Of a stretch of DNA of 31,669 nt, positions 18,583 to 26,042 are shown piece by piece. Position 1 is the stretch's first letter; each line of letters starts with the position of its first letter. This DNA is from Candidatus Krumholzibacteriia bacterium (GTDB lineage: Bacteria; Krumholzibacteriota; Krumholzibacteriia; LZORAL124-64-63), in the NCBI GenBank assembly GCA_030643455.1, contig DAOWLV010000001.1:1-31669 (forward strand), read 5' to 3'. Position numbers and translations under genes: made by a program. The notes beneath the pieces were generated by a model, which was not told the DNA's origin, ran no database searches, and saw only the letters and a list, made by a program, of their open reading frames with translations.

Positions 18583-18638
18583 AATCGGGATGAATTCGAA
18601 ATGGGTTGACGTCTGAGCCCTGGATCCGTAAATAAAGA

Positions 18639-18652
18639 GGATAGGTAGTTGC
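18639..18652 (+). promoter_or_regulatory. Weak candidate sigma-54 -24/-12 promoter upstream of the small secreted protein gene
   Basis: GG(18639-40)-N10-GC(18651-52) with a perfect TTGC -12 element, but a poor -24 element (AGGATAG vs TGGCACG). A TTGACG at 18606 with a weak -10 is an alternative. Confidence 0.3.
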
Positions 18653-18731
18653 GCTCGCGGCTCCTGCGGCATGTTCGGGAGCCAGGCGGGTATCATTCGT
18701 TAGACGGGGTGTTGTGTTGAAGGAGAAGAAC

Positions 18732-19043
18732 ATGAAAAAGAATCTTTTGGTTCTGGTTCTTCTGGTGACGTGGTCGCTATTGTCCATTTCCTCGCTTTCG
18801 TCCGCGGCTATTGCGGGCGAAGATCTGGATTTACCCGAGTGGTCTTCCCCCAATGGTCCCATCGTTGAGGTCAATGGGGCCGGCGATGACGATTCCGGGG
18901 GTGATCCTGGAGACGCCGGAGACGGTTACGGGGTTACTGATCAGGGCCTTGGTGGGAACCAGGGCGGATGCGATGGTGCGGACGATTCGACCCTTGATGA
19001 GTTTATGCTCATCCTGATGTCATTGGTCCAGCTGGCTCTTTAG
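18732..19043 (+). CDS. Small secreted Gly/Asp-rich protein (103 aa) with hydrophobic C-terminus; candidate signalling-peptide precursor
   Basis: AAGGAG RBS 6 nt before the ATG; Sec signal MKKNLLVLVLLVTWSLLSISSLSSA; acidic Gly-rich core (DDDSGGDPGDAGDGYG); C-terminal DEFMLILMSLVQLAL. Confidence 0.8.
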   Translation: MKKNLLVLVLLVTWSLLSISSLSSAAIAGEDLDLPEWSSPNGPIVEVNGAGDDDSGGDPGDAGDGYGVTDQGLGGNQGGCDGADDSTLDEFMLILMSLVQLAL

Positions 19044-19066
19044 GGTTGCCCATGGTGGGCGGCCCT
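19042..19066 (+). other. Intercistronic RNA hairpin without a U-tract
   Basis: AGGGTTGCCCA-TGG-TGGGCGGCCCT: 11-bp stem including 2 G-U pairs, starting in the stop codon of the small gene; not followed by poly-T. Confidence 0.55.
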
Positions 19067-19125
19067 GAAGCCGGGACAAATAATTTGCTGTCACCGGTCC
19101 ACTTCCTCGCCGAGGGATACGGTTG

Positions 19126-22810: not shown

Positions 22811-23063
22811 AATATCTGTTTCATGTCCTCTCATGACCATGTCGTCCCATTTTGGATAATCTGTCCTTCAAATCACACAAATATGAACCGATTTTGTCAT
22901 GAATTTCACGGACACAATGTTGTGGTTTTGTCATTTAGCGAACGGTAGCAGGAAGACTCCGGGCGATATAAACTGTTTAAAACAAATAAAATGTGATGTT
23001 TTACATTATTCCCCTCACAATTGTCCTTCAAGGTGAGGTCTCTGCAGGCCTTTACGGTCCCCG

Positions 23064-23079
23064 TGGCACGGACCGTGCG
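23064..23079 (+). promoter_or_regulatory. Sigma-54 (-24/-12) promoter P2; predicted TSS ~23090
   Basis: TGGCACG-GACC-GTGC: consensus -24 element, GG 23065-66 and GC 23077-78 10 nt apart; AT-rich upstream tract; GGAGG RBS at 23114-18 and ATG at 23126 follow. Confidence 0.75.
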
Positions 23080-23125
23080 TCACGGTGGGTGGGAATAAGG
23101 GAAACGATGACCTGGAGGTCGTAAC

Positions 23126-24148
23126 ATGAAGTGGACCATGGGAAATAGCACAGGGAATATCCGGAGCTTCCGGATACGGTCCGCCATGCTTTCGGCGGTC
23201 CTGGTGGTCATGGTAGCTGTCCTGGCTGGTTGCGAGTCCGATGATGATTGCCTCAACTGCGTGGAACTTCCGCCGCCGGTCGTGCCGACGGGCGTCCACA
23301 GCATCAGTGGCGACGACCTGGTCACCGTGAGGTGGTACGACATCTCCTACGTCCCCTACGATGGTTCCTACAATGAAAACGTCGTGAAATACTATATCTA
23401 CAGCCGATTCTATGAAGAGGGTGATCACTCCATCCCCGACCGTGAGTTCTTTTTTATCGGCGAGGTTGCCTGGGACGAGAACTATGATGATTACACCGGG
23501 CTGCACTGGTTTGATGACTACGATGCCGTAAATGGTGATCAGTACGAATACGCCGTCGCGGCCGTCAACGCCGCGGGCGCCGAGAGCGCCCTCAGTTTCG
23601 AGTTCGTCGTCGATGCGCCACTGCCCATGAGTCCCCAAAACATCAATGGAAACTTCATGCCGCTGACCCTGTATGACGGCAACGGTCCCCAGGCCAACAT
23701 GTCCGGTTTCGATTTTGCGGAGGCCGCGGGCAATCAAGGCAATTTGAATGCCGGCCGGGTCGATCCGGCGATCAATTCATATGATATAGAGATAATATTC
23801 GAAGGTGACGTTCCCTACGTGTTGGCCAATCCCTCCAGGGTTGTCCTGCAGGATTTCGGGGTCTTCACCAGCGACCAAGGTCAACTCATCTTCGAGGGTG
23901 TGTCCTGGGCACCGGCCGACGGTTATTCGCAGACCGGGAAAATTGAACTGGTGGCCGGGCACATTTACGTCGTGGAAATCCAGGCGCCCCAGCTGCATTA
24001 CGCTAAATTCGGGGTGACCGGCACCTATACGGATCCGAAGTCGGTGGACATCATCTGGGCCTACCAGACCATTGCTGGACTGCCTGAACTCAAGGCGCCC
24101 GAGGATCTGGAAACCGGTCCGGCCAAGCCCCGGATTGTCAGCTTTTGA
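23126..24148 (+). CDS. Lipoprotein with a fibronectin type III-like domain
   Basis: Lipobox VLAG-C followed by ESDDDC; FN3-like PTGVHSISGDDLVTVRW...YEYAVAAVNAAGAESALS; acidic and aromatic-rich; strong RBS. Confidence 0.8.
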   Translation: MKWTMGNSTGNIRSFRIRSAMLSAVLVVMVAVLAGCESDDDCLNCVELPPPVVPTGVHSISGDDLVTVRWYDISYVPYDGSYNENVVKYYIYSRFYEEGDHSIPDREFFFIGEVAWDENYDDYTGLHWFDDYDAVNGDQYEYAVAAVNAAGAESALSFEFVVDAPLPMSPQNINGNFMPLTLYDGNGPQANMSGFDFAEAAGNQGNLNAGRVDPAINSYDIEIIFEGDVPYVLANPSRVVLQDFGVFTSDQGQLIFEGVSWAPADGYSQTGKIELVAGHIYVVEIQAPQLHYAKFGVTGTYTDPKSVDIIWAYQTIAGLPELKAPEDLETGPAKPRIVSF

Positions 24149-24182
24149 ATTGTATGCGAACTGAGGAAAGGAGCGTGAAACC

Positions 24183-26042
24183 ATGAATGCCATACTCACG
24201 ACAACCAAAGGCGGCCTGCCCGGAATCCGTTCCATGTGGGGTGTGCATCTGGTCTTTTTCCTGACTTCACTTACCATGGTTCTGGCCGGTGGCGGCGTTG
24301 CCCTGGCGCAGAATCCCGAGGTCGGAGGAAATCCGGACTCGGGGGATTTCGACTACGGCAAGGTCGATCTGCGCGTTGGGGTCTGGCTCGACCGGGAAGA
24401 AAACGAGATCTATCAGCGTGGCGAGGAGATGGGCACCGGCTTCCAGACCAACCAGGATGCCTATGCCGTGGTCTACCGTATTGATGTGGACGGTCTGGTG
24501 ACCGTGCTGTGGCCCCGCAGCCGCATGGACGATGGCTTCGCTTTCGGCGGCCACGAGTATCTCCTGCCCGTGTCCGGGGGGCGCAAGCTCCGTGTTTCCA
24601 CCAGTGAAGGAGAGGGGTTCGTCGAGGCCATCGTCTCGAAGTATCCCTTCGACCTGCGTGATCTGGAGATCGACTTTCACCATGAACTCGGCGCCGACCG
24701 GTTTGATTTCCGGGTGGCGGGGGATCCTTTCCTGGCCATGAACGAGGTCAATTTCGCGGTGACGGGTCTGGAAAATTCCGAAGAATACGTGGTAACCAAT
24801 TACACCGGCTATTACGTGCACCGCCAGGTCGAACACCCTCGTTATCTTTGTAACCAGTGCCACTTCGAGGACGAGGTGGCCTATGAACCCTACCGGGACA
24901 CCTGCACACTGGAGATCACCTACGACTACGGTTGGGTCAACTCCTGGTACGACGACTACGGTTATTACCCGGTCTACGCCAACCCGGTCTACGTCTACGT
25001 GGATCCCTGGACCTGGCGGCCCTGGATCAATTTCTGGTACTGGCCCTCCTATACCTGCGCGCCCTATTACGGTTACGGCTGGTACGGCGGTGGCTGCTAT
25101 TCATGGGGCTACTCACCCTACTACGCGGGCAATTGTTACACGTCCTACGACAACGGAAACCGCCGCTACCGGCCCTTGACCAATGGAGGCGTTGACGGCA
25201 CCGTTACCAAGACCCGGGAGTACGGCAGGGTCTCCCGGATGGTCAGCAGTGAAACACCCGATTCACGGCAACGCGATGCCATGACCAACCGCACGAGGAT
25301 GTCGGATCTGGACGGCGTCAAGGGCCGGTCGAACAACCTGGCCACGACCGGCGGTCTGGCCGGCGGTCTGGGCGGCGTCAAGGCCACTCCTCGCGAACGG
25401 CCCCGTTTTGATGAAGGCGTCCGCGTGAGGGGTAATTCCGGCTTGCGGATCAGGGATGGAGGGAGCACAGTTTCAAGGTCTCGAACCGGCGGCAGCCGAG
25501 GGACGGGCGCCGACATGAGACACCGCGCAGGCGGGTCCACCACCCGTTCGGGCCTGGTTCCCGTCGCCCGGGGCGCCGGTGCCTCCACCACCGTTCGCGG
25601 CAGTTCAGGCAGCCGCACCGGCGGTGCGGTCATCGACCGCAAAACCGGGACGCGGCCCGGCGCGAGCACGAATCAGCGGACCATCAAGCCCGTGGAACCC
25701 CGCCAGCGGGGGACCCGGGTCTGGAATTCCGGCCGCAGCGGCCAGTCCACGGACCGTAACAACAGGACACGGCAGGTACGTCCCGGCACCAGCCAGAAAC
25801 CGACTTCCGGCGCACGAAACAGCCGCAGCTCGGTGAAGCCGCGGTCCGGCACGAGCAATACCAAGGGTTCCGGGACCAGGAGTTCCGGTTCCGTTGGTAA
25901 CAACAATTCCCGCTCGAAGTCGAGTTCCGGCGGTGGCCGGAGTTCGGGCGGTGGCGGAAGCCGCAGTTCAGGAGGCAGCAGCAGCAGTGGCGGCTCATCC
26001 AAGGGCGGCAGCCGCGGCGGAGGCACATCCCACAGGAGGTAG
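24183..26042 (+). CDS. Secreted DUF4384-like domain protein with CxxCH, a Tyr/Trp/Gly-rich segment and a long Arg/Gly/Ser-rich tail
   Basis: Signal-like N-terminus (...GVALA-Q); DLRVGVWLDR...IYQRGE...DAYAVVYRIDVDGLVTVLWP is DUF4384-like; CNQCH at 24849-24863; aromatic-rich middle; low-complexity basic C-terminus; GAAAGGAG RBS. Confidence 0.75.
   Translation: MNAILTTTKGGLPGIRSMWGVHLVFFLTSLTMVLAGGGVALAQNPEVGGNPDSGDFDYGKVDLRVGVWLDREENEIYQRGEEMGTGFQTNQDAYAVVYRIDVDGLVTVLWPRSRMDDGFAFGGHEYLLPVSGGRKLRVSTSEGEGFVEAIVSKYPFDLRDLEIDFHHELGADRFDFRVAGDPFLAMNEVNFAVTGLENSEEYVVTNYTGYYVHRQVEHPRYLCNQCHFEDEVAYEPYRDTCTLEITYDYGWVNSWYDDYGYYPVYANPVYVYVDPWTWRPWINFWYWPSYTCAPYYGYGWYGGGCYSWGYSPYYAGNCYTSYDNGNRRYRPLTNGGVDGTVTKTREYGRVSRMVSSETPDSRQRDAMTNRTRMSDLDGVKGRSNNLATTGGLAGGLGGVKATPRERPRFDEGVRVRGNSGLRIRDGGSTVSRSRTGGSRGTGADMRHRAGGSTTRSGLVPVARGAGASTTVRGSSGSRTGGAVIDRKTGTRPGASTNQRTIKPVEPRQRGTRVWNSGRSGQSTDRNNRTRQVRPGTSQKPTSGARNSRSSVKPRSGTSNTKGSGTRSSGSVGNNNSRSKSSSGGGRSSGGGGSRSSGGSSSSGGSSKGGSRGGGTSHRR

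Follow-up and report, generated by a model that had tools for sequence, protein, structure and literature searches.

A phylum-wide sigma-54 module that may pair a small exported protein with a tetratricopeptide-repeat activator in Krumholzibacteriota

What does a sigma-54 activator respond to when its input region is a long array of tetratricopeptide repeats (TPR)? Phosphorylation or a small ligand is the usual switch for this class of activator. The question is raised by a stretch of 31,669 nucleotides (nt) from a Candidatus Krumholzibacteriia bacterium (GenBank assembly GCA_030643455.1, contig DAOWLV010000001.1, positions 1 to 31,669 of the forward strand), hereafter the window, which is contig C89 of a metagenome-assembled genome that is 76% complete; the phylum, Krumholzibacteriota, belongs to the FCB group and is uncultured. 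The block under study contains, in this order, an NtrC-type regulator, a small exported protein, a TPR-GAF sigma-54 activator, about 900 nt of non-coding DNA, a lipoprotein (g340) and a DUF4384 protein. A first-pass annotation of the sequence had tentatively interpreted the locus as peptide quorum sensing by the TPR activator, with a non-coding RNA and cell-surface genes as outputs. All the elements that it listed (small gene, activator, the sigma-54 promoters P1 and P2, structured RNA and lipoprotein/DUF4384 operon) are present in the window and conserved beyond chance, which confirms the observation itself; the interpretation as a whole is partly supported. The reading that we favour, with moderate confidence, is that of a phylum-wide sigma-54 module in which the small exported protein and the TPR activator are a cognate input pair. 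Full-text literature searches found no published description of such a module.

The TPR activator (19126..22254, + strand) is a cytoplasmic protein of 1042 amino acids (aa), according to its translation and Pfam matches. Its TPR region (TPR_12, 99 bits, and TPR_MalT) occupies approximately residues 130-525, and is followed by a weak GAF_2 match under the Pfam cut-off (residues 574-705), by Sigma54_activat (PF00158, residues 733-898, 214 bits) with an AAA lid, and by a C-terminal HTH_8; no receiver domain was detected in it by Pfam. The features expected of a bacterial enhancer-binding protein were all found: a Walker A motif readable in the translated AAA+ domain, a Fis-type helix-turn-helix (HTH), an rpoN gene elsewhere in the genome (contig C125, in a genome with about 15 sigma-54 activator genes in all) and -24/-12 promoters, the latter predicted and conserved in position. 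The first gene of the block (17221..18582, + strand) encodes a second sigma-54 activator, a response regulator of the NtrC type with REC, AAA+ and HTH_8 domains (Response_reg, 112 bits; Sigma54_activat, 218 bits). Both activators carry a GSFTGA loop in place of the canonical GAFTGA.

The TPR activator is widely conserved. Using its N-terminal 720 residues as query, a single ortholog was found in each of 41 relatives (41/41), and orthologs occur in 119 of the 121 genomes of the phylum, including all 104 of good quality. Its surroundings were compared in family-level sets of 20-21 loci and, for the promoters, in a class-level set of 16 loci. Gene order is unchanged in 20/20 family loci, through the DUF4384 gene up to a gene for a 1153-aa protein, with an activator-g340 spacer of 790-2000 nt; the NtrC-type regulator is syntenic in all 20, and both it and the order of the block are retained in most class-level loci. 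Even in families with a non-adjacent NtrC-type gene and with g340 at a distance of 3-4 kb, P1 is found behind the TPR activator. An AlphaFold2 (AF2) model of activator residues 1-560 (pLDDT 90) predicts an all-helical TPR-like solenoid over residues 31-554, and the nearest solved folds in a Foldseek search were TPRs of the LGN/Pins type, plus other generic solenoids; none of the best 50 matches was a receptor of the RRNPP group, the TPR regulators of peptide signalling to which we return below. LGN/Pins TPRs bind long extended peptides. As far as a model can tell, the fold resembles such generic peptide-binding TPRs and not RRNPP receptors.

A candidate partner for this solenoid is encoded immediately upstream. 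The small gene (18732..19043, + strand) ends 82 nt ahead of the activator ATG (19126), and its product, 103 aa from the ATG, begins with an n-region containing Lys-Lys, followed by some 18 residues of hydrophobic core and by a c-region of small residues. These three regions of the predicted Sec signal are retained in all orthologs; beyond them come an acidic, Gly-rich middle and a hydrophobic C-terminus. Alignments reveal a constant family architecture of signal peptide, variable linker, acidic Gly-Asp-Pro (or Gly-Asp-Ala) box, second linker and C-terminal amphipathic helix, and the AF2 model places helices at residues 2-22 and 85-102 with disorder in between. The box is the most conserved segment, with a mean pairwise identity of 0.50 vs 0.13-0.31 elsewhere. 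Homologues fall into 37 close clusters, and a profile search extended them to 217 clusters, mostly of about 100-115 aa among the matches listed. No Pfam or NCBIfam family matches the protein, and the ESM Atlas gave leads that were all below 0.9, in Acidobacteriota, Eisenbacteria and Zixibacteria. Two other identities were considered and dropped: a C-terminal sorting signal (PEP-CTERM, IPTL-CTERM), since the motif-transmembrane-Arg architecture is missing, and a SecM-type arrest peptide, since a Pro-rich arrest motif is absent and no Sec component is encoded by the downstream gene.

A sigma-70-like promoter candidate, TTGACG-17 nt-TAAATA, was read from the sequence ahead of the small gene (18606..18634, + strand), and an alignment of the spacer between the NtrC-type regulator and the small gene retains both hexamers in several genera. 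Its conservation at this place suggests that the small gene and the activator form an operon of their own, which would thus not be sigma-54-autoregulated.

The genetic case for a cognate pair is strong, as judged from gene arrangement and sequence variation. The small open reading frame (ORF) precedes the activator in about 35 of the 37 orthologous loci, the pairing persists at 30% activator identity, and a distant metagenomic contig carrying a homologue has the same combination of small ORF and activator. The first-pass annotation had proposed looking at homologues for a signal-peptide ORF upstream and for sigma-54 motifs downstream, and this comparison came out in its favour at both ends, the downstream motifs being conserved as well. 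Furthermore, the genome holds two more TPR-sigma54 activators, on contigs C235 and C349, and an exported Gly-Asp-Pro-box ORF lies upstream of all three. Both additional cassettes, which are outside the window (C235:5342-8414 and C349:1-2288, - strand), consist of a box mini-protein and a TPR-sigma54 activator with no recognisable GAF domain, and the C235 small ORF overlaps the start codon of its activator. Downstream, a weak -24/-12-like site was seen before a gene for a 227-aa exported protein. Among relatives, 17 of 20 paralogue loci have an upstream exported box ORF, often overlapping the activator start codon (gaps from -38 to +27 nt), and most of the paralogous activators measure 820-890 aa. 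In the activator tree, box variants are specific to each clade. When the whole genome was scanned for this type of small ORF, the C89 and C349 copies were recovered, along with one spurious-looking off-frame ORF; the same scan, which missed the C235 copy, did not find the type before the approximately 12 other sigma-54 activators of the genome. The paralogous cassettes and their clade-specific boxes are, together with a palindrome confined to P1 (see below), new in this analysis. Recurrent pairing and clade-specific boxes match the pattern expected of a cognate signal-receptor family, a relationship that is plausible and unproven.

The output side of the module starts with two predicted sigma-54 promoters downstream of the activator, both with the correct GG-N10-GC spacing. 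P1 (22468..22483, + strand; TGGTAT-N5-CTGCA, with TGG at -24 and TGC at -12) lies about 200-315 nt past the activator stop in 20/21 family loci and is retained in 13/16 class-level loci. P2 (23064..23079, + strand; TGGCAC-N5-GTGCG) lies 47 nt before the g340 ATG, is found 35-116 nt ahead of g340 in 21/21 family loci, and is likewise retained at class level. Motif counts are not informative here: a loose -24/-12 pattern shows no enrichment in the window, with 25 matches vs 21 expected, and a stricter one has 25 matches genome-wide, approximately the calculated chance level. The case for both promoters thus rests on their conserved position.

The DNA upstream of the two promoters differs. A palindrome 110 nt upstream of P1 (22358..22374, + strand) is a candidate enhancer, or upstream activator site: 15/20 family loci match its pattern, T[GA]T[ACT]A[AT]-N5-6-[AT]T[ATG]A[TC]A, close to position -110 or -173 relative to P1, and the pattern recurs at class level. 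In 264 kb of loci, 16 of its 18 sites are located upstream of P1, and shuffled sequences contain 0.2 on average. Upstream of P2, the palindrome was found in none of the 21 family loci. A separate note on this DNA had proposed motifs common to P1 and P2, which does not agree with a conserved palindrome that belongs to P1 only; the pattern suggests that the two promoters have different activator sites.

P1 would read into a structured non-coding RNA of about 320 nt (~22495..22812, + strand), which ends in a branched intrinsic terminator with a U tract (22741-22810). The stretch from the predicted P1 start to the U tract is much better conserved than its flanks. An nhmmer search recovered it from 20/21 family loci and, with weaker matches, from two families at class level; the genome has a single copy. 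With 20 aligned sequences, RNAalifold yielded 48 consensus pairs, and 31 of these show compensatory changes; 91.6% of the cells at these positions are paired, vs 36-53% when partners are shifted, and none of 500 shuffles equalled the observed values. The single sequence folds at z = -4.4. Single-base indels within the conserved blocks argue against coding. Rfam 15, whose catalogue includes CrcZ and other sigma-54-dependent small RNAs (sRNAs), gave no match at gathering score in the window, and over 22255-23125 its matches were at chance level only (E ~0.6 or more).

Several short segments of the RNA are candidate binding or seed sites, judging from their sequence conservation. The 11-nt block GAGGTGGGGTC (22640-22652) is nearly invariant over 20 genomes, a single sequence having one substitution, and most of it falls within a predicted internal loop; the ACCGGC segment and the GGCGAGA hairpin loop are nearly invariant to invariant. 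The GAGGUGGGGUC block is invariant and single-stranded. In a sediment run (X1), one contig from a related strain skips 132 nt (window 22709-22842) spanning the terminator domain; its likeness is 90%, and it may come from another organism.

The P1 transcript could also act in cis on the g340 operon, as a leader or attenuator, given that g340 follows it on the same strand and that its terminator is in principle open to read-through. We consider this very improbable: all family loci have P2 after the terminator and before g340, conservation of the 250-nt spacer is poor, and one family keeps P1 by the activator with g340 3-4 kb away. An RNA with its own terminator, with P2 beyond this terminator, and which stays by the activator when g340 is 3-4 kb distant is better read as free-standing, and it would presumably act in trans.

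Joining both sides, the favoured reading of a cognate input pair would work as follows. A bicistronic operon with its own sigma-70-type promoter would produce the exported Gly-Asp-Pro-box protein and the cytoplasmic TPR-GAF enhancer-binding protein; the former, either as a re-imported fragment or as a not-yet-exported precursor, would be the partner read by the TPR solenoid, and the GAF domain would then gate the AAA+ motor. The activated TPR protein would bind the palindrome about 110 nt upstream of P1 and set off sigma-54 transcription of the 320-nt structured RNA, which would stop at its own terminator. P2, with its different upstream DNA, would drive the lipoprotein/DUF4384 envelope operon; its activator may be either the neighbouring NtrC-type regulator or the TPR protein itself. 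What the sequences show directly are the genes with their domains and order, the conserved promoters, the structure of the RNA and the paralogous cassettes; the binding of the small protein to the TPR region, the assignment of each activator to a promoter and an action of the RNA in trans are inferred.

Several points weigh against this scheme. Co-folding of activator residues 30-720 with the mature small protein gave a score of 0.00 with a partner pLDDT <30, a result that has no bearing on binding either way. Export of the small protein and the cytoplasmic place of its supposed receptor oblige us to assume an extra step, be it re-import or sensing before export. A clear sigma-54 promoter was not found downstream of most paralogous cassettes, with a strict match in 2/21. 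The enhancer pattern was derived post hoc from the same loci in which it was counted, and hence is a candidate only. The one sequencing run labelled as RNA holds 11% of the sampled words, from related strains only, and is probably DNA. Finally, linked inheritance of adjacent genes gives shared clade variants without any physical contact.

This last point leads to the possibility that there is no physical link at all, the small protein being an envelope or periplasmic factor (e.g., a calcium-binding acidic protein) that is merely co-transcribed, while the TPR region binds other proteins and the GAF domain a small molecule. Linked inheritance alone can yield the pairing as well as its clade variants, the Asp-rich box appears to resemble metal-binding loops, and co-folding yielded nothing; besides, GAF domains commonly bind small ligands. 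We nonetheless give this explanation a minor, though real, chance, as the same small-ORF type precedes three paralogous TPR activators and was not found before the dozen others in the scan mentioned above, start-codon overlap is frequent among the paralogues, and the association is held down to 30% activator identity.

If the small protein is indeed the cognate input, the form in which it is sensed can be asked next. One special case of the favoured reading is strict RRNPP-type quorum sensing, in which the precursor would be exported and cut to a short peptide with the box or the C-terminal helix; this peptide would build up in the surroundings, be re-imported by an Opp-type permease and be bound in the TPR groove. 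Cassettes of this type (Rap-Phr, NprR-NprX, PlcR-PapR, PrgX, Rgg-SHP, AimR-AimP), from Bacillota and their phages, are like the present one in having a small gene with a Sec signal, predicted in our case, beside a cytoplasmic TPR regulator, and in occurring as several paralogous cassettes per genome, each with its own motif variant, as do the distinct box variants here. Three of the five features of the published RRNPP signature are present or predicted, namely a TPR receptor (TPR_12, TPR_MalT), direct adjacency (82-nt gap) and, as a prediction from its three typical regions, a Sec-type signal; the two length ranges are exceeded, the receptor measuring 1042 aa vs 250-500 aa and the precursor 103 aa from its ATG vs 10-100 aa, or 21-50 aa for validated propeptides (PMC10075063). 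The modelled disorder of the mature small protein is pro-peptide-like, and Opp/Dpp-type binding proteins in 41/41 relatives mean that an import route exists, which does not discriminate between the readings. Unlike RRNPP systems, the locus has a receptor twice as long with an AAA+ sigma-54 motor as output, a precursor of 100-115 aa with an internal conserved box, a host that is a diderm of the FCB group, and LGN-type TPRs as nearest folds, with no RRNPP receptor among the best 50 Foldseek matches. The box is almost invariant across genera, hence there is no strain-level dialect, the peptide would have two membranes to cross each way, and neither a conserved processing protease nor a dedicated transporter was found in the block. 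Thus, we regard strict RRNPP-type signalling as improbable, and hold just as low an expectation of its broader version, i.e., several orthogonal peptide channels of the RRNPP kind rewired to sigma-54, the main one switching the structured RNA and a type-IX-linked surface operon.

The other special case dispenses with re-import: the TPR region would bind the precursor in the cytoplasm before Sec export, and the output would report the state of export or of the envelope. TPR chaperones of type III secretion provide substrate feedback of this sort (IpgC-MxiE, SicA-InvF). By analogy with them, transcription here might be set by how far a cytoplasmic TPR protein is occupied by a protein not yet exported, although in our case the TPR is fused to the activator and export is by Sec. 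Overlapping or close genes suggest joint synthesis of both proteins in matching amounts, envelope and surface genes beside type IX secretion components (described below) make up the outputs, and both the signal peptide and the C-terminal helix are retained. Against it, the acidic box and not the signal peptide is best conserved, the co-fold lent no support to binding, and no sigma-54 activator is known to work as an export monitor. We hold such a monitor to be unlikely, if slightly less so than peptide signalling of the strict RRNPP type.

On its output side, the locus is most similar to CbrB-CrcZ of Pseudomonas, and likewise to NtrC-NrsZ, LuxO-Qrr and GlrR-GlmY, in all of which the gene directly behind that of a sigma-54 activator encodes a non-coding RNA and has a -24/-12 promoter, an upstream activator site and an intrinsic terminator to itself. 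It differs from them in that the RNA has no Rfam match, CrcZ included, in that the activator has TPR and GAF input and no receiver domain, and in that the block adds a second activator and a second sigma-54 promoter. A TPR solenoid as the switch of a whole activator family, invariably accompanied by an exported mini-protein of its own, would represent, if true, a new input logic; should the peptide reading hold, diderms would have their first case of RRNPP-like signalling. Irrespective of the input, the locus yields a new RNA, strongly structured and phylum-wide, that could enter RNA-family databases, together with a core regulator of a phylum so far uncultured and a defined set of promoters and enhancer that can be rebuilt in an rpoN-positive host.

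The operon behind P2 begins with the lipoprotein g340 (23126..24148, + strand), which carries the lipobox LAGC, is syntenic in family and class, and is matched by no Pfam or NCBIfam family. After a gap of 34 nt comes the exported DUF4384 protein (24183..26042, + strand; Pfam DUF4384, 40 bits), the second gene of the operon, whose last ~250 aa (25200-26042) are a tail of low complexity in which Ser, Gly, Arg and Thr abound. The DUF4384 gene is followed by a terminator-like hairpin (26233-26246) and by a near-consensus sigma-70 promoter, TTGACC-17-TATAAT (26320-26348), so P2 probably serves directly only these first two genes, and 26233-30887 looks like a transcription unit apart from it. Its 1153-aa protein resembles the NCBIfam family "T9SS-dependent M6-like inactivated metalloprotease" (153 bits, below cut-off) and carries a C-terminal sorting-type domain; a gene for a barrel of the PorV/PorQ family comes next, in the region up to 30887. 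At the other end of the window, positions 1-4337 contain VWA-TPR and BatD-TPR-SH3 genes resembling the Bat aerotolerance type of operon, and an HDOD-domain protein is encoded at 4888-6705.

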